Positions 3,186-63,476 of a DNA stretch of 64,000 nucleotides are shown piece by piece. Position numbers and translations under genes: made by a program. The notes beneath the pieces are model-generated. The model was not told where the DNA came from. It searched no databases and saw nothing but the letters and a program-made list of their open reading frames with translations. The stretch covers positions 54,445 through 118,444 of the forward strand of contig CAVWAU010000004.1 in NCBI GenBank assembly GCA_963753125.1, read 5' to 3'. Numbering within the stretch: position 1 is the first letter of the stretch; each line of letters begins with the position of its first letter. This stretch comes from an uncultured Chloroflexia bacterium. GTDB taxonomy: Bacteria > Chloroflexota > Limnocylindria > QHBO01.

Positions 3186-3637
3186 GAAGCTCGCTTGCGA
3201 TAGACCATGTCGAAGTCGGGCTCCCAGGCCTTCCCGTCGGGGGACGACTCCCAGGCGCCCTCGATCGTCGAGTCGTCCCTGAAGGTGCCGATGAAGCGCT
3301 GGAAGAAGCCGGGCGCATCGCGCCAGACGGTCCAGGCGTCATCGGTCAGGGTCATGCGGTAGATGCGGAAGACTCCTCGCGCGTCGGCGTAGAGCTGGGT
3401 GCACTCGTCGGTCGTGTCGTCCCAGCCGATGACCGCTGTCACCGGCATCGGCGAGTTGGTCGCCCAGTCCTCCGACGTGTTGGGATCGGGTTCGTCATTG
3501 GCGTGCTGGATGACGAAGGCGCCCTGCTCGATCCACTCGAAGCTCGTGGATCCGCGCCCCAGGAAGCTCCCGCCGGCGCTGGCCTCGAAGTCCCAGGTGC
3601 CGATCAGGTGCCCGAGCGGGGAGCCGGCCTTCGTCAT
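3182..3637 (-). CDS. hypothetical protein (possibly a lipocalin-like beta-barrel)
   Basis: 151-aa ORF with non-GC-biased composition. It is translationally coupled to its neighbours in a five-gene minus-strand operon. Confidence 0.5.
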   Translation of the reverse strand: MTKAGSPLGHLIGTWDFEASAGGSFLGRGSTSFEWIEQGAFVIQHANDEPDPNTSEDWATNSPMPVTAVIGWDDTTDECTQLYADARGVFRIYRMTLTDDAWTVWRDAPGFFQRFIGTFRDDSTIEGAWESSPDGKAWEPDFDMVYRKRAS

Positions 3638-19190: not shown

Positions 19191-20438
19191 TCAGTTGGCT
19201 GCCGTGCGCAGCGATGTGAAGGCTGTACGCAGCTCGGCCGAGAGCAGATCGGGCTGCTCCCAGGCCGCGAAGTGGCCGCCCTTCTCAAGCTCGTTGTAGT
19301 GGATCAGCTGGGGATAGGCCCGCTCAGCCCAGCTTCGCGGGGCCTGATACTGCTCGCCGGGAAAGACGCTCACCGCCACTGGAATGCCGACACCCTTGGC
19401 GTTGAAGAAGCCGCCGCGGTACTCCCAGTAGAGACGCGATGCGGAGACCCCGGTGTTCGTCAGCCAGTACAGCGTGATGTTGTCGAGGACCTCGTCCCGC
19501 GTCAGCTCCCTGGTCGTGCTCGCCGTCCGGCCGAGGGCCGCGACGACCGCTGCCGCGGGCTGGCCGCCGGCATCGTTGTGGTCGAGAAGCCAGGCTGCCA
19601 GGCCGACAGGTGAGTCGGCGATGCCGTAAGCGTTTGCGGGCGTGACGCCATCAACCTCGCATAGTCGACCTGCTTGAACGTCCTGACCAGCTGCTCGTAC
19701 GCCCGATGCTTCCTCGGCGGAAAGGCCCTCGGGTGGCGGGTCGCCGGCAAGAAGCGCTCTATCCACATCGGCCGGGACGGTGCCTGGCATGTTCGTGTGA
19801 ATTGCGAGCAGCCCTTCCGGTGCCTGCAGGCCCATCTGGTCGACGACGAAGGCACCCCAGTCGCCGCCCTGGGCGACATAGCGGGTGTAGCCCAGACGCT
19901 TCATCAGCTCAGCCCAGGCGCTGGCTATACGTTCGGGGCCCCAGCCGGGGCTCGTTGGCTTCCCGGAGTATCCGTATCCGGGCATCGACGGGATGACGAC
20001 GTCGAAGGCATCCGATGCGCGCCCTCCGTGGGCGGTCGGATCGGTCAGAGGGCCGATGATCTTGAGCTGCTCGATGATGGAGCCGGGCCAGCCATGCGTG
20101 ACGATCAGAGGCAGGGCGTTATCGCTCTTGGAGCGAACGTGGATGAAATGGATGTCCAGCCCATCGATCTCGGTGATGAACTGCGGCAGCGTGTTGAGTT
20201 TCGCCTCCACCTTGCGCCAGTCGTATTCGGTCGCCCAATAGCCTGCAAGTTCTTGGATGATGGCCAGCGGCACGCCCTGCGACTGGTCGGCGACCGTCTC
20301 CTTCTCGGGCCACCGTGTCATGGTGACGCGCCGCCGCAGCTCCTCGAGGGACTCATCTGTGACCTTCGCCATGAACGGACGAATGGTCGTTTCGTCGCGC
20401 GTGGCCGAGCGTTGTGGTGTTGGAGCGATGGTGGACAT
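19191..20438 (-). CDS. epoxide hydrolase (alpha/beta hydrolase with EH N-terminal domain), copy 1
   Basis: 415 aa. IRPFMAKVTDESLEELRRRVTMTRWP is the EH N-domain and HGWPGS is the oxyanion motif. AAGGAGG precedes the ATG. Confidence 0.85.
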   Translation of the reverse strand: MSTIAPTPQRSATRDETTIRPFMAKVTDESLEELRRRVTMTRWPEKETVADQSQGVPLAIIQELAGYWATEYDWRKVEAKLNTLPQFITEIDGLDIHFIHVRSKSDNALPLIVTHGWPGSIIEQLKIIGPLTDPTAHGGRASDAFDVVIPSMPGYGYSGKPTSPGWGPERIASAWAELMKRLGYTRYVAQGGDWGAFVVDQMGLQAPEGLLAIHTNMPGTVPADVDRALLAGDPPPEGLSAEEASGVRAAGQDVQAGRLCEVDGVTPANAYGIADSPVGLAAWLLDHNDAGGQPAAAVVAALGRTASTTRELTRDEVLDNITLYWLTNTGVSASRLYWEYRGGFFNAKGVGIPVAVSVFPGEQYQAPRSWAERAYPQLIHYNELEKGGHFAAWEQPDLLSAELRTAFTSLRTAAN

Positions 20439-20485
20439 GGCTCTGCCTCCTTGGCGCTCGGACGCCTGCCCGCGCGCGGCCTCAA

Positions 20486-21689
20486 TTACCGCAGTGAGCT
20501 GAATGCAGCCCGCACTTCCTCGGAGAACAGCTGCGGCTCCTCCCAGGCGGCGAAGTGGCCGCCCTTCTCGGCCTCATTGAAGTAGGCGAGGCCGGGGTAG
20601 ACCGCCTCGACCCAGCTGCGCGGGGAGGCCCAGATCTCGCCTGGGAACGTCGTGAAGCCGACCGGCACGCTGACCGGCGGGGGGGGCTGGCCGCTGGCAA
20701 GCGATGCGGCGAGCGCTCGTGCGTCCTCCCAGTAGTTTCGGGCCGCCGAGACTGCGGTGCCCGTGATCCAGTAGAGCGTGATGTTGTCGACGATGCTCTC
20801 CCGGGTGAGGCCGCCCACGGGCGCCCCGTCGACGAACGCGCGCGGAGATCTTGTAGTAGCTGTCGGTGTCGTGGTCGAGCATCCAGGCCGCCAGCGCGAC
20901 GGGGGAATCCAGCAGGGCGTAGCCGATCGTCTGTGGCCGCGTTGCCATCTCCAGGAAGTAGCCGAAGCCGTCCTGCCTGAACGTCCCGACCGCCTGGGCC
21001 GCCTTGCGCTCCTCTTCGGACTCCCTGGGCAGTTGATCGCCGATGGCGAGCACCGCCGTGAGCAGGTTCAGGTGGTAGCCGGCCAGACCTTCGACCGCCT
21101 GGCGGCCCATCAGGTCCGTGACGAGCGCACCGACGTCGCCGCCCTGGGCTACGTAGCGGGTGTAGCCGAGGCGGTGCATCAGCTCCGCCCACGCGCGTCC
21201 GGTTCGGGCGGCGTCCCAGCCGAGCTCGGTCGGCTCGCCGGAGAGGCCGTAGCCGGGCAGGGACGGCAGCACCAGGTGGAATGCGTCCTCGGCTGTGCCA
21301 CCGTGCGCGGTCGGGTCGGTCAGCGGGCCGACGGTCTCGAGCAGCTCGATGACCGAGCCGGGCCAGCCATGCGTCACGATCAGCGGCAGCGCATTCTCGT
21401 GGCGCGACTTGACGTGGATGAAATGGATCTCCACCCCATCGATCTCGGTCTTGAACTGCGGCAGCGCGTTCAGCCTGGCCTCGATCCGACCGAAGTCGTA
21501 GTCGGTCGTCCAGAAGCGCGCCAGCTCCTTGGTCGTCGCCAGCTGGACGCCCTGCGATCGATCCTCGACGAGCTCCTTGGTGGGCCAGCGCGTCGCCGCG
21601 ATACGCCGGCGCAGATCGTCGATCTGCTCCTGTGGAATCTTGACTTGGAACGGCCGGATATCGGTCGCGATGTCAACGGCGATGGTCAT
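20486..21689 (-). CDS. epoxide hydrolase, copy 2, with an apparent 1-bp insertion near 20843
   Basis: MTIAVDIATDIRPFQVKIPQEQIDDLRRRIAATRWP...HGWPGS...DSYYKIS, then a shift, then RAFVDGAPVGGLTRESIVDNITLYWITG...EKGGHFAAWEEPQLF. An extra base sits in a GCGCGCG / CC run. GAAGGAGG RBS and ATG at 21689. Confidence 0.75.
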
Positions 21690-37138: not shown

Positions 37139-38239
37139 ATGACCTCGACGCTGCCGACGACGCCGCTCAGTCGCGCCTCGACCCTGCCGAAGCGGTACTT
37201 CCTCGATCCCGACATCCTCGAGGCCGAGAAGGAACGGATCTTCGGCAGCACCTGGCAGCTCGTCGCAAAGACCGATGAGCTCCAGCGCATCGGCGACTTC
37301 GTGCCGGTGACGGTCCTCGACGAGCCGGTCGTCATCACACGCGGCCTGGAGGGGGAGCTGCGGGCCTTCTACAACGTCTGCCGGCATCGGGCCGGGCAGG
37401 TGGCGCTCTCCAAGGGCAATCGCAAGTCGCTCCAGTGCCGATACCACGGCTGGACCTACGGGCTGGACGGGTGTCTTCGCGCCGCTCCCGAGATGGAGGA
37501 GACCGAGGGATTCTCCAAGGACGACTTCGGGCTGATGCCGGTTCGCGTCGACGCCTGGGGCCCGTTCGTGTTCGTGTGCCTATCGGACTCGGCGCCGGCT
37601 TTGCGCGACATGATCGGGGCGATTCCCTCGGAGGTCGCAGCGGCCGGCTACGACGTGGAGTCCATGCGACTGGTCGAGCGGCGCGAGTACGTCGTCGAAT
37701 GCAACTGGAAGGTCTACGTCGACAACTACCTCGAGGGCTACCACCTGCCGATCGCGCACCCGCAGCTCTACAAGGAGCTCGACTACGACGCCTACCGCGT
37801 CGAGGAGTTCCGGTACTACAGCAAGCAGCACGCGCCGATCCGGGAGCTGAAACCGGGGGAGGAGATCGGGGTCGACCGTCGCTTCCTGCGTCAGCCTGGC
37901 GCCGAGGACTCGGCGCTCTACTTCTGGCTGTTCCCGAACACGATGTTCAACATCTACCAGGACAACATGTCCTCGAACGTCATCCTGCCGCTGGGCGTGG
38001 ACCGCACGCTCACGATCTTCGAGTGGTTCTTCGCCGACCCCGGTTCCGGCCCCGGCTGGGAGTCGATGCAGCAGACGATCGCCTTCTCCGACGAGATCCA
38101 GCAAGAGGACATCGTCATCTGCGAGCAGGTTCAGCGCGGCCTCCGATCACGCTCTTACGAGGCCGGCCGCTTCTCCGCCAAGCGCGAGAACGGCGTCTAC
38201 CACTTCCAGAACCTCGTCCGCGAGTTCCTCGGGAAGTAG
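37139..38239 (+). CDS. Rieske [2Fe-2S] aromatic-ring-hydroxylating oxygenase alpha subunit-like protein
   Basis: CRHRAG...CRYHGW is the Rieske motif, with mononuclear-iron EGYHLPIAH further on. The real ATG is at 37139; the 463-aa ORF N-terminus is antisense to the SBP gene. Confidence 0.85.
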   Translation: MTSTLPTTPLSRASTLPKRYFLDPDILEAEKERIFGSTWQLVAKTDELQRIGDFVPVTVLDEPVVITRGLEGELRAFYNVCRHRAGQVALSKGNRKSLQCRYHGWTYGLDGCLRAAPEMEETEGFSKDDFGLMPVRVDAWGPFVFVCLSDSAPALRDMIGAIPSEVAAAGYDVESMRLVERREYVVECNWKVYVDNYLEGYHLPIAHPQLYKELDYDAYRVEEFRYYSKQHAPIRELKPGEEIGVDRRFLRQPGAEDSALYFWLFPNTMFNIYQDNMSSNVILPLGVDRTLTIFEWFFADPGSGPGWESMQQTIAFSDEIQQEDIVICEQVQRGLRSRSYEAGRFSAKRENGVYHFQNLVREFLGK

Positions 38240-38256
38240 CACCCGGCGCCATTCTC

Positions 38257-38387
38257 GTCAGATTCAGTTGGCAGCCGCGGTATCTGCGTCATCGGTCCGC
38301 CGGCCCGTCAACTGCGGCTGTGACCCTGCAGGGCGGCGACTTCTGACGCGTTTCGCATCGGTAGTGCGGCGGTCACCTGAATCTGAC
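38257..38387. repeat. MITE-like 131-bp element with ~26-bp terminal inverted repeats, copy 1
   Basis: Left end GTCAGATTCAGTTGGCAGCCGCGGTA. Right end GGTAGTGCGGCGGTCACCTGAATCTGAC. Confidence 0.6.
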
Positions 38388-38737
38388 AGGCTGTGGAACC
38401 AGAGCAGGCCCGAGGCGGGAAGCGTTGGGGTTCGGAGCCATCGCCGCGTCGAGCCGCCCCGGATCGCGAACGTCTCGAGAAGCGCCTCGTGCCGAGCGAC
38501 GATGCGGCGGTTCGTGCTGTCCTCCGCAAGCACCAGCGCCCTCACCGCGGACGACGGCGGCCCAAGGCCGAGCTCTCGCGAGATGACGCCGGCGAGCCGC
38601 ATTTTCGTATCGAGCCGATGGAGCGTCTCCTGGAGATTCCCCAGCCTGGACTTCACCTCGACGATGAGCAGGATCCGATGGACCGGATGCCACGCAACGA
38701 GGTCGCAGCTGCCTCGATCGCCGTAGTGGTTGAACGT
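38264..38737 (-). pseudogene. PD-(D/E)xK nuclease-like (YraN/UPF0102-like) gene remnant lying between two copies of the element
   Basis: Stop-to-stop frame on the minus strand. TFNHYGDRGSCDLVAWHPVHRILLIVEVKSRLGN... carries the D...EVK motif. The C-terminal 41 codons are read from element copy 1, and an in-frame TGA sits immediately upstream. Confidence 0.3.
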
Positions 38738-38789
38738 TCACGCCATCTTCGCGATCGCCGCATACTGCGTGCGTACGGCGCGCTTATTG

Positions 38790-38920
38790 ATCAGATTCAG
38801 ATGAGGGCCGCACTACGCGCTGAATCGGCCCGCCTACTCGTCATATGCGGCGCTGGTCCTGCAGCTCGGCGGGTGGAGGCGCCGCTCGCCGAGTTAGTGC
38901 GGCAGTGGCATGAATCTGAC
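38790..38920. repeat. MITE-like 131-bp element, copy 2
   Basis: Left end ATCAGATTCAGATGAGGGCCGCACTA. Right end GTTAGTGCGGCAGTGGCATGAATCTGAC. Same orientation and length as copy 1; the interior is about 60% identical, with a shared CCTGCAG core. Confidence 0.6.
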
Positions 38921-38953
38921 GGAACGTCGCTACTGGCCCGCTACGCTCCACAA

Positions 38954-39226
38954 ATGACCTACGAGGAGCTCCTCGAAATCGCACGCAAGAACGCAGGCAA
39001 GACGCTCGAGACCGTCACCGGGAAGCGCTTCACCGTCGGCATCTACCGCGACTGCCCGTTCTTCACGCCGGCCTCGAGCGGCTACGGCCAGAGCGACGGC
39101 CGCCCCGCGGCCGAGCGCTTCCTCCGGCGGTACAACGAGACCGGCAGCCTCCGCCCGGGCGACTACGCGGACGTCACCAGGAACGCGTCGTACTTCATCG
39201 GTCTCCTGATCAACGGCGTACGCTGA
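38954..39226 (+). CDS. hypothetical small protein (90 aa)
   Basis: MTYEELLEIARKNAGKTLETVTGKRFTVGIYRDCPFFTPASSGYGQSDGRP... Starts 34 bp after copy 2 and ends 5 bp before the C-N hydrolase gene. Confidence 0.5.
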   Translation: MTYEELLEIARKNAGKTLETVTGKRFTVGIYRDCPFFTPASSGYGQSDGRPAAERFLRRYNETGSLRPGDYADVTRNASYFIGLLINGVR

Positions 39227-39230
39227 ACGG

Positions 39231-40085
39231 ATGACGACCACCCCACCGACCAGGGCCGACGGCAAGCTGACGGTCGCCCTCGTCTCGGAGGTCTTCTGGG
39301 AGGCCGATGGCGCCCAGCGCCTCCGCCAGCGCCTCGCCGAGGTTGCCGAGCGTGGCGCGGACCTCGCGGTTCTCCCGGAGATCCCGCTCAACCCGTGGCG
39401 CCCCGCCAGCAGGGAGGCGCACGATGACGACGCCGAGCCGATGGACGGGCCCCGCTCGAAGGCCCAGCAGGACGCGGCGAGGGAAGCCGGGATCGGCTTG
39501 GTGGGCGGCATCATCCACCGCGAGCCGGACACGGGCCGCCGGACGAGCCGCGCGCTGATCATCGACGGCGCCGGCCAGATCCGGGCGACCTACGAGAAGC
39601 TCCACCTGCCGGAGGAGCCGGGCTTCTGGGAGACGAGCCACTACGAGCCGGGCACCAAGCCGCCGAACAGGATCGACGCCTTCAGCCTGCCCATCGGTGT
39701 CCAGATCTGCTCCGACAACAACCGGCCGCAGGGGACGCACCTGCTCGGGGCACAGGGCGCGATGGCGGTCGTCGTCCCGAGAGCCAGCGAGGAGAAGACC
39801 TACCAGCGCTGGAAGAGCGTCTTCCGCTCGAATGCGCTGACCGGCTGCCTCTACGTCCTGAGCGTGAACCGCCCGCATCCGGAGGAGGGCGTGCTGATCG
39901 GCGGGCCGAGCGTCGCCTTCGACCCCAACGGCGAGCTCCTCACGGAAACCACGGACCAGGTCGCTCTCGTCACCCTGGCAGCCTCAACGGTGACCGATGC
40001 GCGCCGCGCGTATCCCGGGTATCTGCCGATCCACGCCCGCCTCTACGCCGATGCCTGGGCCGAGATCGCCGGAACCGACGGCTGA
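39231..40085 (+). CDS. carbon-nitrogen hydrolase family protein (nitrilase/amidase superfamily)
   Basis: 284 aa. LAVLPE is the catalytic Glu region, a Lys region follows, and IGVQICSDN is the catalytic Cys. Confidence 0.8.
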   Translation: MTTTPPTRADGKLTVALVSEVFWEADGAQRLRQRLAEVAERGADLAVLPEIPLNPWRPASREAHDDDAEPMDGPRSKAQQDAAREAGIGLVGGIIHREPDTGRRTSRALIIDGAGQIRATYEKLHLPEEPGFWETSHYEPGTKPPNRIDAFSLPIGVQICSDNNRPQGTHLLGAQGAMAVVVPRASEEKTYQRWKSVFRSNALTGCLYVLSVNRPHPEEGVLIGGPSVAFDPNGELLTETTDQVALVTLAASTVTDARRAYPGYLPIHARLYADAWAEIAGTDG

Positions 40086-41267: not shown

Positions 41268-41403
41268 GCGTCGAGCCCCTCGCCGCGCGCCGGTTGTGCG
41301 GCCGCCTCGCGGTGCCGCGGAGCGCCGCTGCGCGAGGATCGCGTGCGGTCGCGGCCCAAGATCTGCATGATTGCGGCGGCGTTCAATCGCTTGGAGGTGC
41401 CCC

Positions 41404-41769
41404 ATGACCAGCCCAACCATGGCCGGCGAGCCCCAGCCACCCGCATCCACCACGCCGCCTCCGTCGGTCGTCGACGAGCTGCTGCGCGATTACCACGATG
41501 CCCGTCGTCGGGAGGACCAGTGGCGCATCCCGCAGCTGCTGCTCGCGCTCGCGACACCCATCGTGGCGTTCATCACCGTCCTCTTCACGCTCGCCGGGGC
41601 GAAGGACTACGCGGTCATCTCTGGAGCGGTGGCGATCGTCACCGGTACGGGAGCGGCGCTGATCGCCACCGAAGTGTGGCGCTGGCATCGGACCGCGATC
41701 GGGATCGCCAACAGCGTGCGCGATGAGCACCCTGGCGATGCGGCTCTGCTGCTCAAGGACCCGCTCTGA
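41404..41769 (+). CDS. hypothetical membrane protein (2 TM)
   Basis: MTSPTMAGEPQP...LLLALATPIVAFITVLFTLAG...AVAIVTGTGAALIATEVW. Confidence 0.45.
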   Translation: MTSPTMAGEPQPPASTTPPPSVVDELLRDYHDARRREDQWRIPQLLLALATPIVAFITVLFTLAGAKDYAVISGAVAIVTGTGAALIATEVWRWHRTAIGIANSVRDEHPGDAALLLKDPL

Positions 41770-41934
41770 GCATCGCATCCTCAGGGGAAACCTGTTCAGC
41801 GTCCACCTTTCCGGCGGGGCCTCTTGCTGTGGAGTGGATACTGCCGTCGATGCAGGCGGAGTCAGGCGAGAAGGTGGCCGCGTTGATCCGGGTGGCAGGC
41901 TGACGGGCGAGCAGGGGGCCGTACACTCGCCGTA

Positions 41935-42276
41935 ATGGTTGGCGAAGCTTCGGCCGCACGGATCGCCCGGCGTCTTTCGCTTGCCACCTGCGTCTGCCTC
42001 AGCGCCTGCACGCTCATGGCTGAGCCCCGATCAACGGAAGGTCCGGACCTCATCAACACGACCGATGCCGAAGTGGTCGTGTTCGTGGACACACGGGCGG
42101 CGGGCGAGGTACGGGCCATGAACCTAGGTCCGGGGAGCAGCGGCATCTATGACATCGGCGTCGACAACTGCACGAAGTCTCGCCTCATTGCGAGGACACC
42201 GGACGGAGATGAGGTAGACCGCATAGCTGCCGGCCTGTGTGACGGCGAGTCGTGGGAGATCGCCGAGCCCGGCTAA
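41935..42276 (+). CDS. hypothetical lipoprotein
   Basis: Signal peptide with lipobox CLSAC. 113 aa. Confidence 0.5.
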   Translation: MVGEASAARIARRLSLATCVCLSACTLMAEPRSTEGPDLINTTDAEVVVFVDTRAAGEVRAMNLGPGSSGIYDIGVDNCTKSRLIARTPDGDEVDRIAAGLCDGESWEIAEPG

Positions 42277-42374
42277 ACGATCCGCTTGCCGTCCGTTTGC
42301 CGGAGGTCCGAACCGAACGGACGTTCAGCTTGGCCACGAGACCGAATCCACCCCGTTCCGTGCACGAACGGAGG

Positions 42375-42461
42375 TGGTGCCGGGGGTGGGACTCGAACCC
42401 ACACGGGCTTGCGCCCATCGGTGTTTGAGACCGACGCGTCTACCGATTCCGCCACCCCGGC
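42375..42461 (-). tRNA. tRNA-Leu (anticodon CAA)
   Basis: Minus-strand read GCCGGGGTGGCGGAATCGGTAGACGCGTCGGTCTCAAACACCGATGGGCGCAAGCCCGTGTGGGTTCGAGTCCCACCCCGGCACCA. Cloverleaf with a long variable arm, anticodon loop CTCAAAC and an encoded CCA. Confidence 0.85.
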
Positions 42462-60091: not shown

Positions 60092-60964
60092 CTCCCCGTC
60101 ACCATGTCGAGCAGTCCGCCCTGGCGGGCGCGGCGCATGAACCAGGCGAAGGCGGCGAGCGCGAGCGGAATCGCGACGGCGGTCGATGATGAGCAGGAAG
60201 AGCATGACGAGGTCATCGGGCACGGTGCCGATCCAGGACTGTGGCGTCCCGTGGCCGAGCAGGCCACGCCGCGACGCCTCCAGCCACCACGTCGTCGGCA
60301 AGGCGTACGCGATCGGCTGGAGGACCGATGGAAGGTGGTCGATCTGGAAGATCGCGCCCGAGAGCAGGTACAGGGCGCCGGCGATCGCCTCCGGGTACGA
60401 CCATGCCTCCTGGCGCAGCTGCAGGCACCAGCCGGCCATGAAGATGCCGATGGCGATGACAGCCAGGACGCCGAGCACGGTCGCGGGCACGAGGTAGAGG
60501 AGATTCACCTGGAGGTCGACGCCGAGGAAGACCACGCCGACGGCCAGGGTCAGCACCACCGCAACGAACGAGATGATCACCCGCGCCAGTGACCGTCCGA
60601 GCAGGAACGGGAAGAGCGAGGGCGGCGTGACGACGACGTACTTGATCATCCGATAGCGCTCACGGTCCTCGAGGATCGATTGCACCAGCCCGGCGAGGAC
60701 CCCGAAGACGACGTTCCACAGCGCCGTGCCAACGATGAGGAACTGCAGGAACTCCGGGTTCCGGCCGCCGGTGATGACCTGGAACATCACGACCAGGATC
60801 GCCGCCGCCGCCAGCGGCTTGGCGAGCGTGTAGATGAAGAAGAGGAGCGGATCGGACCAGTTCGCCTCGACCGCCCAACCGAGACCGATGGCGGTGCGGA
60901 AGCTGCGCCACGCATCGGCGAAGGTGACGCCGCGGACGGTCGCGGATCGGCCGGTCACTGCCAT
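60088..60964 (-). CDS. ABC-2 type transporter permease, subunit 2, with an apparent 1-bp insertion near 60170
   Basis: MAVTGRSATVRGVTFADAWRSF... is a 6-TM ABC-2 permease. After ...LVMLFLLII a +1 shift restores DAVAIPLALAAFAWFMRRARQGGLLDMVTGS* (TAG at 60088-60090), because GACGCC reads GACCGCC. An alternative GTG start at 60958 gives a GTGA overlap. Confidence 0.75.
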
Positions 60965-61827
60965 CGCAGCGTCAGGCGTCCTTCGCGCCGGGCGAGCCGC
61001 TCGAGGTAGCCGAGCGCCAGCCGGGCGGCGACGAGGAAGACCACGCCCATCACGGCCAGGATCGCGATCTCGACGTTCACCGGGAGCACGGGCTCGACAT
61101 CGCTGCTGGCGAAGGCGAGCTGGCGCATCGCGTCGAGGCCCACGGCAAGCGGCAGCGTCGCCACCACGACCGCGGCGAGGGGCATGATCGCGCTGAGCGG
61201 GAAGTTCACGCCGCCGAGGAAGTAGATCGGCTCCTGGAGGAGCTGCGCGAGGTGGAAGCCCTCGCGCCCCCACATCAGGAACAGCGACGCGAAGAGCATT
61301 CCCATCCCGTACAGCGGGATCATCGTCAGGAAAAAGACGCCGACCAGGAGCCACGGCTGCTGCACGTCGTAGGTCACGCCGTAGACGATCGAGCCGATGC
61401 CGATCACGGCCAGCGCTCGCGAGCTCGTCAGCACCAGGCCACCGATGGCCATGCCGGCCAGGATGCTCATCAGGTGCATCGGCGCCGAGAAGTAGAGCTC
61501 CAGGTTGCCCTGGTCCTTCTCCCAGTAGAACTGGGCGGCCATCATCCACACGACGTTGAGCCAGAACGCGGTCATCGCGCCGCCGAGCACCACGAAGCCG
61601 ATGAAGTGCTCGGGCGCCTCCAGCGCCCGATAGACGAAGACGAAGGCGCTGACGGCCAGGAACGGCAGCAGGATCTCGAAGAAGATCCACGAAGGCTCCC
61701 GCGTGAGACCGATGATCCTCGGGTAAGCCCGACCCACGATCGCGCGCAGGTTGACGCGGACGAGGCGCCCCGTCGACCACTCGGCGGCCTCTCGTGGGGT
61801 CCTGGCCAGCGTGTGGTAGCTGCTCAT
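60955..61827 (-). CDS. ABC-2 type transporter permease, subunit 1
   Basis: 290 aa, 6 TM. Overlaps the ATPase stop (ATGA). Confidence 0.85.
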   Translation of the reverse strand: MSSYHTLARTPREAAEWSTGRLVRVNLRAIVGRAYPRIIGLTREPSWIFFEILLPFLAVSAFVFVYRALEAPEHFIGFVVLGGAMTAFWLNVVWMMAAQFYWEKDQGNLELYFSAPMHLMSILAGMAIGGLVLTSSRALAVIGIGSIVYGVTYDVQQPWLLVGVFFLTMIPLYGMGMLFASLFLMWGREGFHLAQLLQEPIYFLGGVNFPLSAIMPLAAVVVATLPLAVGLDAMRQLAFASSDVEPVLPVNVEIAILAVMGVVFLVAARLALGYLERLARREGRLTLRWQ

Positions 61828-62849
61828 GACTGGTTGTTCCCGTCCTCATCGCCGAAGCCGCGTCCGACCAGCTCGACGAAGACGTCCTCGAGGCTCGGCT
61901 CCGACTTCGCCAGCCCGACGAGGTGCGATCCGCGCTCCGCGACCGCGGTGACGACGCTCGTCAGGGCAGAGTCGTCGGCCAGCGCCACCTTCAGGGCGAC
62001 CCGGTCGGAGCCGGCGCCCTCGCCGTCGACGTCGGCGCGAACCGCCGAGAGGACCCCCGGCAGCTCGCCGATGGCTGCCAGGCCGCCCTGCGCGGGGAGC
62101 TGGTCGAGCTCGAGGCGGAAGATCGACTCGGCCTGCACCCTTCGCCGCAGCTCATCGGGCGAGCCGAGCGCGAGGATCCGGCCCCGGTCGACGATGGCGA
62201 TCCGGTCGCACAGCTGCTCGGCCTCGACCATGTAGTGCGTCGTGAGCAGCACGGTGCGGCCCTCGGTCTCGGCCTTCCAGGTCAGCGTGTGCTCGCGCAG
62301 GTCGCGCGCCGCGGCCACGTCGAGACCCAGGGTCGGCTCGTCGAGGAAGAGGACCCACGGGTCGTTGAGCAGGCCGCGCGCGAAGTTGAGCTTCTGGCGC
62401 TGGCCGGTCGAGAGGGTGCGCACCTTCTGGTCGCGCTGCTCGACGAGGCCGGTGATCTCGATCAGCTCGTCCACCCGCCGCCACCCGTCGCGCTGCGTCA
62501 GGCCGTAGAACTGGCTGAACATCCACAGCTGCTCGCGGGTCGTCAGCAGGCCGTAGCCGGACTGCTCGCCGCCGGAGACCATGTTGATGACGCGCCGGAT
62601 CTTGGCGGTCTCGTTGACGACGTCGAAGCCGGCGACGCGGGCCGTGCCGCTGGTCGGCAGCAGCAACGTCGTGAGGATCTTGATGAGCGTCGTCTTGCCG
62701 GCGCCGTTCGGCCCGAGCAGCCCGAAGAACTCGCCCGGCTCGACGTCGAGGTCGACGCCGCCGAGGGCGGTCACGGGCTCCGGCTTGGCCTTGTAGACGC
62801 GCGTGACGGCGCGCGCGTGAATGGCCAGTTCGTCAGCGCTGTCGGGCAT
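61824..62849 (-). CDS. ABC transporter ATP-binding protein (DrrA-like, ABC-2 exporter)
   Basis: Walker A GPNGAGKTT, signature LSTGQRQK and Walker B LFLDEPTLGLD. 341 aa with a C-terminal regulatory domain. Confidence 0.9.
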   Translation of the reverse strand: MPDSADELAIHARAVTRVYKAKPEPVTALGGVDLDVEPGEFFGLLGPNGAGKTTLIKILTTLLLPTSGTARVAGFDVVNETAKIRRVINMVSGGEQSGYGLLTTREQLWMFSQFYGLTQRDGWRRVDELIEITGLVEQRDQKVRTLSTGQRQKLNFARGLLNDPWVLFLDEPTLGLDVAAARDLREHTLTWKAETEGRTVLLTTHYMVEAEQLCDRIAIVDRGRILALGSPDELRRRVQAESIFRLELDQLPAQGGLAAIGELPGVLSAVRADVDGEGAGSDRVALKVALADDSALTSVVTAVAERGSHLVGLAKSEPSLEDVFVELVGRGFGDEDGNNQS

Positions 62850-62942
62850 GTGCTTTCCCCACGGCGAGGCCGATCGGAATACCGGCGGGAGCGCGATGGT
62901 AGCACCGGCGGCCGGCGAGGAGAATCGCTCCTGTCGGAGCCC

Positions 62943-63200
62943 TCAGTTCAGCGAGTCGTCGTCGCAGCAGTCGTCGGGGCCGTGGCTGCAGTCGACCGAC
63001 AGGAGGTGGGCTCCGGAGATCCCGAGGAGAGCCGAGCAGACCGCGTCCTCGCTGGGGCGATCGTGCTCGAGGGTCTCCAGGGCGAGCTCCACGCGGGCCG
63101 ACAGGGTGGCGCTCATCGACTCGTTCGCGCCGAAGGTGCGCCACATGCCGTCGTCGTCCCAGATGACGATGCCGTAGCCCTTGACTGCCACCGAGAACAT
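62943..63200 (-). CDS. hypothetical small acidic Cys-rich protein (85 aa)
   Basis: MFSVAVKGYGIVIWDDDGMWRTF...SVDCSHGPDDCCDDDSLN. No family recognised. Confidence 0.35.
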   Translation of the reverse strand: MFSVAVKGYGIVIWDDDGMWRTFGANESMSATLSARVELALETLEHDRPSEDAVCSALLGISGAHLLSVDCSHGPDDCCDDDSLN

Positions 63201-63344
63201 CGGTCTTCTCGTTCCAAAAGTACTGGTGTGGTACTGGGACTCAGGATGAGGCTGCCGAGCTCGCGTGCCAAGTGTGCGCGTCCACCCAAGAGCGCACCCG
63301 ACCGATCAAAGTTGCCGGTCGTGACGCCGTCGGTAGGCGGTTCC

Positions 63345-63476
63345 GTCAGATTCACGCCACGGCCGCACGAACTCGCGTACCAGGGTCGGATTCCGCCGCG
63401 GTGCAGGGTGGGAGCCGCAGATGACGTGTCCAGGCCCGATCCGGGAGCGTAATGCGGCGCTCATCATGAATCTGAC
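63345..63476. repeat. MITE-like element, copy 3 (132 bp)
   Basis: Left end GTCAGATTCACGCCACGGCCGCACGA. Right end CGTAATGCGGCGCTCATCATGAATCTGAC. Same TIR pair as copies 1 and 2. Confidence 0.55.

Follow-up and report, generated by a model that had tools for sequence, protein, structure and literature searches.

Why would a bacterial genome keep the same short palindromic element at both ends of one gene, and what could act on it there? The question is raised by a 64,000-nucleotide stretch of the genome of an uncultured Chloroflexia bacterium of the Limnocylindria lineage (contig CAVWAU010000004.1; hereafter, the window), which contains three inverted-repeat elements, here called w1, w2, and w3 (Table 1). 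The three elements are real, and the sequence reads as a preliminary description of this DNA had reported it: units of 131, 131, and 132 bp with common ends. They belong to an undescribed family of old, low-copy, imperfect palindromes of about 131 bp in Limnocylindria-type Chloroflexota, and two of them, w1 and w2, flank the remnant of a gene for a protein with an XRE-type helix-turn-helix (HTH) domain and a PD-(D/E)XK nuclease domain. The reading that we put forward, tentatively and with somewhat less than even confidence, is that the elements are the cognate sites of this HTH-nuclease, in an arrangement resembling that of REPINs and their RAYT enzymes.

Each unit is bounded by a bipartite terminal inverted repeat of 26–28 bp, in which an outer R box (GTCAGATTCA; TGAATCTGAC at the right end) is separated by a 7-nt spacer from an inner L box (GCCGCAsTA). 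The terminal 10-mer occurs in the window five times exactly and a sixth time with one mismatch (ATCAGATTCA, the left end of w2, the first base of which is A, not G), and all six occurrences are element ends. About 0.03 exact occurrences of GTCAGATTCA or its complement would be expected from base composition, as against the five observed, and the count at up to one mismatch was reached by none of 100 shuffles. The inner box, 7 nt inside each end, reads GCCGCA(C/G/T)TA in w2 and w3, with its complement on the right, and the left inner box of w1 reads GCCGCGGTA. All three elements carry an asymmetric central motif, CGTCAnCTGCGGC-N7-CCTGCAG (CTGCGGC-N7-CCTGCA(G)), which sets their orientation; the preliminary description had confined the CCTGCAG core to w1 and w2 and had missed the inversion of w3. 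The interior of w3 is the reverse complement of the other two, and under the covariance model it reaches 113 bits when read on the minus strand and 54 bits on the plus strand. Because w3 is inverted, it points away from the LacI-family regulator gene (63537 onward, plus strand) that had been named as its neighbor and towards the ABC-transporter operon on its other side (60955–63305, minus strand). This element was also detected as an inverted repeat (36 nt, 92%). Whole-element identity among the three is 68–72%, and that of the interiors is 61–62% once orientation is corrected, which agrees with the earlier figure of about 60%. Two covariance models found no further copies in the window.

The elements are tied to one conserved gene, a connection that had been overlooked. 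In the metagenome contig L031, which is syntenic with the window, two copies lie 838 bp apart, with an intact gene of 243 codons between them on the opposite strand and a C-N hydrolase gene adjoining. The loci examined that contain a homolog of this HTH-nuclease gene were the window, L031, L033, L034, L037, L040, and the distant L047, and five additional loci were fetched for proteins 59–67% identical to the L031 protein. An element lies over the 3′ end of the gene in the window and in all six other loci. In L031, L033, L034, and L037, the overlap of this downstream (D) copy is exactly 67 nt, so placed that the element supplies the last 22 codons and the stop codon, the latter in the central loop. 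The window and L040 have lost this stop, and there the reading frame continues across the element. A 144-bp variant with a near-identical R box overlaps the 3′ end by 121 nt in L047, which represents a subfamily 36–51% identical to a second query protein. The upstream (U) copy, which is found 42–75 nt from the start codon, has the same orientation as the D copy, antisense to the gene, and is held in all Limnocylindria-type loci examined except L033.

The surroundings of the gene are similarly constant. The Rieske oxygenase gene that neighbors it in the window is also present in L033, L034, L037, and L040, and beyond the HTH-nuclease gene comes a C-N hydrolase gene in L031, L033, L034, L037, and L040: it is the immediate neighbor in L031, L034, and L040 (divergent in the latter two), whereas in L033 and L037 other genes have been inserted in between. 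A Rieske gene on one side and a C-N hydrolase gene on the other are thus found in all Limnocylindria-type loci with both flanks readable (the window, L033, L034, L037, and L040), and L031 shows the C-N hydrolase side. The positions of w1 and w2 are orthologous across lineages in which the flanking protein is just 56–68% identical. This conservation of place argues that the HTH-nuclease locus is vertically inherited and that w1 and w2 are not random insertions.

The 243-residue product of the L031 gene comprises an XRE-type HTH domain (Pfam HTH_37/HTH_31/HTH_3), closest to those of C-proteins, HipB, HigA, ClgR, and DdrO, and a region with a weak match to VRR_NUC/YraN (Pfam, NCBIfam). Its AlphaFold2 model (predicted local distance difference test, pLDDT, 85) was matched by Foldseek to restriction-endonuclease-like nuclease domains (R2 RLE, Upx, Can2, EcoT38I, and XisH), and the residues E104, D117, E132, and K134, which form an E...D...ExK catalytic motif, are invariant among 40 homologs. 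The conserved residues and the predicted fold suggest that the nuclease is likely active. At least 878 close homologs exist, those with a label being from Candidatus Limnocylindria or Chloroflexi metagenome-assembled genomes (MAGs), and 650 families reach E <= 1e-30 at the 50%-identity cluster level. Comparison of the protein with defense-system and phage libraries gave weak HTH and Upx-fragment matches only. Some distant members are labeled as Gemmatimonadales or Patescibacteria MAGs; the family may therefore extend beyond Chloroflexota. The residues of the HTH recognition helix were also compared with the L-box variants across 120 homologs, but no clear pattern was evident by eye and phylogeny confounds the comparison.

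The fusion of element and gene is visible in the proteins themselves. By eye, most of 120 homologs end in a translated element with the signature DS[DG]..R[TIV]....RVR.....AG-stop, in which DS[DG] comes from the R box and R[TIV] from the L box, RVR follows, and AG-stop comes from CCTGCAGG-TGA. In the AlphaFold2 model, the fold ends at LLWFE, which is the element border, and the tail beyond it has a pLDDT below 50; therefore, the tail is read-through into the element and not a folded domain.

In the window, this gene is broken. Its remnant has neither the HTH domain nor a start codon, and its frame continues into w1, the right half of which is, on the minus strand, the tail of the pseudogene. 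The locus L040 comes from a close relative (80–90% nucleotide identity), and two blastn blocks join it to the window: L040 7447–9977 corresponds to window 41273–38738, and L040 10283–11897 to window 38737–37123. Missing at the junction are 305 bp, which in L040 contain the initial 94 codons (282 nt) of the HTH-nuclease gene together with the 23 bp that precede its start codon. The element w2 aligns with L040:9795–9925, and the ortholog of w1 is L040:10633–10763, to which the D copies of L031, L033, L034, and L037 also correspond. This comparison therefore identifies w2 as the ortholog of the U copy, w1 as that of the D copy, and the gene as a pseudogene. Insertion of w2 into the HTH-nuclease gene was also considered and is ruled out by the L040 alignment, which shows the 305-bp deletion instead. 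On the coding strand, the normal stop in the center of the element reads TCA, not TGA, in both the window and L040. If the genome contains no second copy of the gene, all three elements are orphaned. The intergenic or gene-end position that had been assigned to the three elements is correct for each, except that the right half of w1 is the 3′ end of a degraded minus-strand gene. The neighbors that had been listed (the Rieske oxygenase, the small open reading frame (ORF) with the C-N hydrolase, and LacI) are likewise all present. The start of w1 is 18 nt past the stop codon of the Rieske gene, and w2 lies 33 nt upstream of the ATG (38954) of the small ORF that begins the C-N hydrolase operon.

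Table 1. Elements, gene remnant, and neighboring genes in the window (positions counted from its first nucleotide).
Feature	Position	Strand	Remarks
w1 (D copy)	38257-38387	+	131 bp; covariance model 126 bits
w1, left end	38257-38282		R box 38257-38266, 7-nt spacer, L box 38274-38282 (GCCGCGGTA)
w1, central motif	~38306-38332		CGTCAACTGCGGC-TGTGAC-CCTGCAGG
w1, right end	38378-38387		R′ box, preceded by L′ box
HTH-nuclease pseudogene remnant	38324-38737	-	tblastn: residues 106-243 of the L031 protein, 58% identity
Deletion junction	38737-38738		clean 305-bp deletion relative to L040 (L040 9978-10282)
w2 (U copy)	38790-38920	+	131 bp; covariance model 116 bits
w3 (solo copy)	63345-63476	-	132 bp; one extra base in left spacer
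Rieske/ring-hydroxylating oxygenase gene	37148-38239	+	Pfam; convergent with HTH-nuclease gene; context only
Small ORF	38954-39226	+	90 aa; no family; context only
C-N hydrolase gene	39231-40085	+	Pfam; context only

The elements change in a manner that separates their ends from their interiors. Between w2 and its L040 ortholog, identity is about 80%, roughly equal to that of the adjoining non-element intergenic DNA, and the only changes in the boxes are at the first and last bases of the left R box. Selection is on the boxes and on spacing and length, not on the interior. In a comparison of 17 copies, the R box hardly varies and pairing in the 26–28 bp ends amounts to about 80%; symmetric pairing is limited to the outer 26–30 nt, inside which each copy has a fold of its own. 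Covariation is modest: the percentage paired and the covariation score are above those of all shuffles, but the 14 of 34 pairs that have changed on both sides are a count that shuffles also reach (81 of 500 shuffles). The terminal stems contain 382 Watson-Crick pairs, 35 G:T pairs, and 35 A:C pairs. Since the two mispairs are equally frequent, neither strand is preferred, a balance that points to recognition of duplex DNA or of a symmetric DNA form and not to RNA.

A further feature is the parallel change of copies within one genome. The L-box variant of L033 is matched on both arms (TGCGCAC/GTGCGCA), and in L034 the U copy has the variant GTGCTCA matched on its two arms, while the D copy has it on the 5′ arm. 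At variable positions, the U and D copies of L037 are 68% identical, as compared with about 30–45% for unrelated copies; the overall range for non-orthologous copies is 17–68% (mostly about 30–50%). These matches indicate concerted change within a genome. The element w3 most resembles the U-type copies, and it agrees with w2 in the spacer, in the bases next to the L box on its inner side, and in the 3′ flank GGAAC. The one recurrent feature of the flanks is GGAA(C/G), which follows the right end of w2, w3, L009a, L012, and L023 (5 of 17 copies); both L037 copies have GGTTCC there. The conserved unit may extend a few bases past the R box on one side only. Local rearrangements were also observed. 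L033:4678–4988 contains a 180-bp tandem duplication of the whole downstream element and the end of the nuclease gene, with two nearly identical copies, and extra partial ends (an R box and an L-like box) stand just outside the gene-proximal copy, on the left in L031 (~2866–2895) and on the right in L047 (5824–5851). This suggests that the element ends are prone to local duplication.

Beyond the window, a collection with one genome for each of 185,579 species was scanned for the two 10-mers at a distance of 96–126 nt. The 29 hits obtained, a number roughly in line with the estimate for chance (about 17), include as true relatives only five 131-bp hits from Chloroflexia/Chloroflexota MAGs, all of which also have the inner box and the central motif, and one 145-bp variant (L007). 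The other hits (Enterococcus, cyanobacteria, Bacteroidota, and so on) have only the 10-mers in common and are not relatives. Extra copies came from searching the fetched loci with the models, and three contigs from a metagenome scan; altogether, about 20 homologs of the element are known, all in Limnocylindria-type Chloroflexota. The length is 131 ± 1 in the 19 copies of the subfamily, and variants of 144–145 bp are present in other Chloroflexota. The oriented consensus of the 131-bp copies is GtCAgATTCAg..g...GCCGCA.tA....(interior)....cGtCA.cTGCGGC..Tca.CCtGCA....(interior)....TA.TGCGgc..t...cTGAATCTGAC. Viral contigs gave no hit to the end pattern, and a plasmid collection gave no match by DNA or by protein. 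In Rfam 15 at gathering thresholds, only tRNAs and one c-di-GMP-II riboswitch elsewhere were found, with no match to the elements, and an E-value scan of 38200–38980 returned chance-level hits only. It had been suggested that the family would be an undescribed one if its copy number proved high; it is new with respect to Rfam and the plasmid collection, and its copy number looks low.

Apart from the copies at the HTH-nuclease gene, solo copies are found at differing sites in differing genomes: in the ogt/clpP spacer, upstream of a tRNA gene, between dnaK and xthA, upstream of nuoA, upstream of tlyA, in a Mrp/phosphoesterase spacer, and, in the case of w3, between the ABC operon and LacI. The dnaK-xthA copy is held by L030/L018 and is missing from the spacer in five relatives (L042–L046; XthA 75–97% identical), of which four have mscL and other genes in its place and the fifth has unrelated sequence. 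In a sixth relative (L041), the xthA locus is rearranged, dnaK is not a neighbor, and the element is missing. The tRNA-adjacent solo copy lies 50–52 nt upstream of a same-strand tRNA gene (L009:5995–6257 and L032:1703–1963) and is kept in both of these related organisms, whose flanking proteins are 90–95% identical. No transposase or integrase is present among the genes of the window or in the gene tables of the loci, and no larger element with the same ends and a transposase was found in the window or in about 220 kb of related loci.

The proposal that the elements are sites of the HTH-nuclease can be put in mechanistic terms as follows. The HTH domain would read the R box and/or the L box, present as inverted pairs at a fixed distance, on DNA that is either duplex or folded out into a hairpin or cruciform; nicking or cutting at the boxes by the nuclease domain would follow, and repair or copying of the cut element could occasionally seed a new copy or homogenize existing ones by gene conversion. 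We infer box reading, cutting, and spread or homogenization by repair from the association with the gene, the synteny, the selection on boxes and length, and the concerted change of the U and D copies. A feasible model for the origin of the arrangement, which we regard as possible but doubtful, is that the REPIN/RAYT lifestyle was invented a second time, independently, by a chromosomally fixed HTH and PD-(D/E)XK nuclease that maintains and occasionally copies its own 131-bp sites.

A number of observations weigh against this proposal. The link between element and nuclease is, in the loci compared, one of position alone. Since it goes back to a single ancient arrangement, it amounts to a single evolutionary event that selection has preserved and not to many independent ones. 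To our knowledge, a PD-(D/E)XK nuclease acting alone is not known as a transposase. Neither L033 nor L047 has a U copy, and bracketing of the gene is therefore not obligatory. Distant homologs (P0241–P0389, at the 50%-identity cluster level) keep a conserved basic "(G)RQRVR" C-terminal tail, which raises the possibility that the element arm derives in part from ancestral coding sequence. As for mobility, the flanks of the 18 listed copies (17 of which are distinct, one being a local tandem duplicate) contain no target-site duplication, as the preliminary description had also noted for the window, and the replacement of the dnaK-xthA spacer in relatives means that this site, the one compared, provides no clean empty site. 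Exact-end copies were recovered from only 3 genomes of the 185,579-species collection and 3 metagenome contigs, and the copy number looks low, at about one solo copy per ~200 kb: about 220 kb not selected for the element contain one solo copy (w3). Finally, there are no near-identical copies except the local tandem duplication; therefore, any copying is rare or ancient.

The comparison with REPINs gives the proposal its form. In REPINs, which are REP doublets, the ends are likewise conserved and the spacers between them are not, and the repeats stand beside an enzyme gene present in single copy (PMC3337134). The REPIN/RAYT systems of Pseudomonas and enterobacteria resemble the present one in that short, hairpin-forming repeats with conserved inverted ends (about 70–110 bp for REPINs) flank an immobile, vertically inherited enzyme gene, with signs of co-evolution between gene and repeat, no target-site duplication, and long persistence in a lineage (PMC3337134). 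On the other hand, RAYT is an HUH/Y1, IS200-like transposase, whereas the enzyme here is an XRE-HTH and PD-(D/E)XK nuclease; the ends read GTCAGATTCA and lack the GTAG/CGTC head of repetitive extragenic palindromic (REP) sequences; and they are bipartite 26-bp repeats in place of 20–25-bp palindromes. Unlike REPINs, which number in the hundreds, the present elements have apparently about ten copies per genome, a Chloroflexota host, a conserved asymmetric central motif, a strict length of 131 bp, and one copy fused to the coding end of the gene. By analogy, then, they would work like REPIN/RAYT without being members proper, because the enzyme class and the REP head do not agree.

Much of the same evidence bears on other explanations. 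We consider it unlikely that the HTH-nuclease-like protein is mainly a transcription factor and that the units are composite operators of four GCCGCAG-like half-sites and two R boxes, around which an oligomer would wrap about 130 bp; the U copy would then autoregulate the gene and the divergent C-N hydrolase operon, and the solo copies would form a regulon. The kinship of the HTH domain with C-proteins, HipB, HigA, ClgR, and DdrO is in keeping with such a role, as are the location of the U copy in a divergent promoter region, at the short distance from the start codon given above, mispairs without strand bias, and a fixed length with conserved boxes, which fits a spacing-dependent protein complex. 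In 7 of 9 contexts, moreover, the element lies 27–145 nt upstream of a co-oriented gene (xthA, tlyA, nuoA, a tRNA, an ABC operon, and twice the C-N hydrolase operon). However, these genes have no common function, some copies lie between convergent 3′ ends (ogt/clpP in L009; the Rieske and HTH genes) or antisense to both neighbors (L026), and the dnaK-xthA copy is not conserved in relatives. A pure regulator would not need the invariant catalytic residues, and 131 bp with 26-bp inverted ends would be unusual for an operator. It is quite unlikely that the elements are ordinary miniature inverted-repeat transposable elements (MITEs), as had been suggested from their architecture, moved in trans by a transposase encoded elsewhere, with the gene-side copies as old insertions that were retained because the stop codon of the gene is now supplied by one of them, much as Rickettsia palindromic elements insert in frame. 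Part of that suggestion stands: the unit is short and multi-copy, its bipartite terminal inverted repeats are of the kind that transposases use, the intergenic copies are dispersed in both orientations, and solo copies differ between genomes, being missing from orthologous sites in relatives; the 144–145 bp variants in other Chloroflexota also fit. Other features do not agree with a classic MITE: the flanks show no target-site duplication, the dnaK-xthA site offers no clean empty counterpart, neither the window nor the genes of the loci with gene calls include a transposase, no larger element with these ends was found in the window or in about 220 kb of related loci, there is no burst of young copies, the copy number is low, and w1 and w2 are at orthologous positions. 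A MITE also leaves unexplained why a second copy is held upstream of the same gene, why the U and D copies change in concert, and why the boxes of immobile copies are conserved over deep divergence. The Correia elements of Neisseria (100–155 bp, with 26-bp ends) duplicate TA, and ERIC/IRU sequences are 127-bp imperfect palindromes. The present elements resemble these MITEs in size, in terminal inverted repeats of about 26 bp, and in an intergenic, often co-transcribed position in both orientations, but differ from them in the absence of target duplication, in low copy number, in the age and divergence of the copies, and in being tied to one gene.

A structured RNA whose ends pair had also been suggested, and we judge it highly unlikely that the elements are long terminal stems with a conserved apical hairpin that would stabilize or terminate the neighboring mRNAs of which they form part, serve as their processing sites, or act in antisense against the 3′ end of the mRNA for the HTH-nuclease. 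The folding energy does lie below that of shuffles, with z = -5.3 (w1) and -4.4 (w2) on the element strand and -2.9 and -2.7 on the opposite strand, but the two strands of w3 fold equally well. Likewise, 13 of 17 copies retain, on the element strand, a G-U pair in the central hairpin, and the orientation is mostly co-directional with flanking genes, yet G:T and A:C mispairs are equal in the terminal stem, the interior fold differs by copy, and the stems are conserved in sequence with little true covariation: pairs altered on both sides are no more numerous than shuffles can produce, and the covariation term of RNAalifold is positive (unfavorable). No match to a known non-coding RNA was found in Rfam, and promoter and terminator scans found no such signals inside the elements. 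Least probable, and in our opinion extremely so, is that the elements are single-strand recombination sites like integron attC, with the gene and one element as a fossil cassette and the hairpin mimicking the core site of a tyrosine recombinase. The likeness is one of layout: attC sites are imperfect palindromes of up to about 140 bp with two boxes per arm and a variable center, inside which an ORF often ends, and the 131-bp elements add to this a 7-nt, partly unpaired spacer and a gene flanked by direct repeats. They nevertheless lack the GTTRRRY/RYYYAAC core, their ends being GTCAGATTCA...TGAATCTGAC; there is no integrase in the window or the loci, and there are no cassette arrays, since never more than two copies follow one another; these always enclose the same gene, at the same chromosomal place; and the strand bias that bottom-strand folding would give is absent. 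A different parallel is offered by Rickettsia palindromic elements, which insert in frame into many unrelated genes. The D copy resembles them as a palindromic repeat within an ORF that adds a peptide segment, but here that segment is the C-terminal tail of one protein family only and is predicted to be disordered.

Three additional features of these loci may be recorded. Two adjacent paralogous gene copies are present at window positions 19207–21659, with a repeat spacing of 1275–1304 bp and 71–74% nucleotide identity. Next to a tRNA gene (42378–42461, minus strand), window 41273–42374 corresponds to L040:3089–7446, where the relative has a 4.3-kb segment of about five genes (an alpha/beta hydrolase and a phytase among them) in place of about 1.1 kb; this is an indel hotspot beside a tRNA gene. 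In L031, positions 3551–3637 (minus strand) match the c-di-GMP-II-GAG riboswitch (40.9 vs gathering 40 bits), upstream of a secreted-protein-like ORF.

Persistent, vertically inherited partnerships of a repeat and an enzyme have so far been known mainly from the REPIN/RAYT systems of proteobacteria. If the elements are indeed the sites of the HTH-nuclease, such partnerships would arise from unrelated enzymes, and the example would come from the Limnocylindria, an abundant uncultured soil lineage. The elements explain the disordered, repeat-encoded tail of the HTH-nuclease proteins; they also mark sites of local duplications and deletions, and they may matter for the assembly and gene calling of MAGs. 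Furthermore, a large unannotated protein family of 650 clusters would gain a concrete DNA substrate, and a new enzymatic route would be at hand for persistent, vertically inherited intragenomic replicators.

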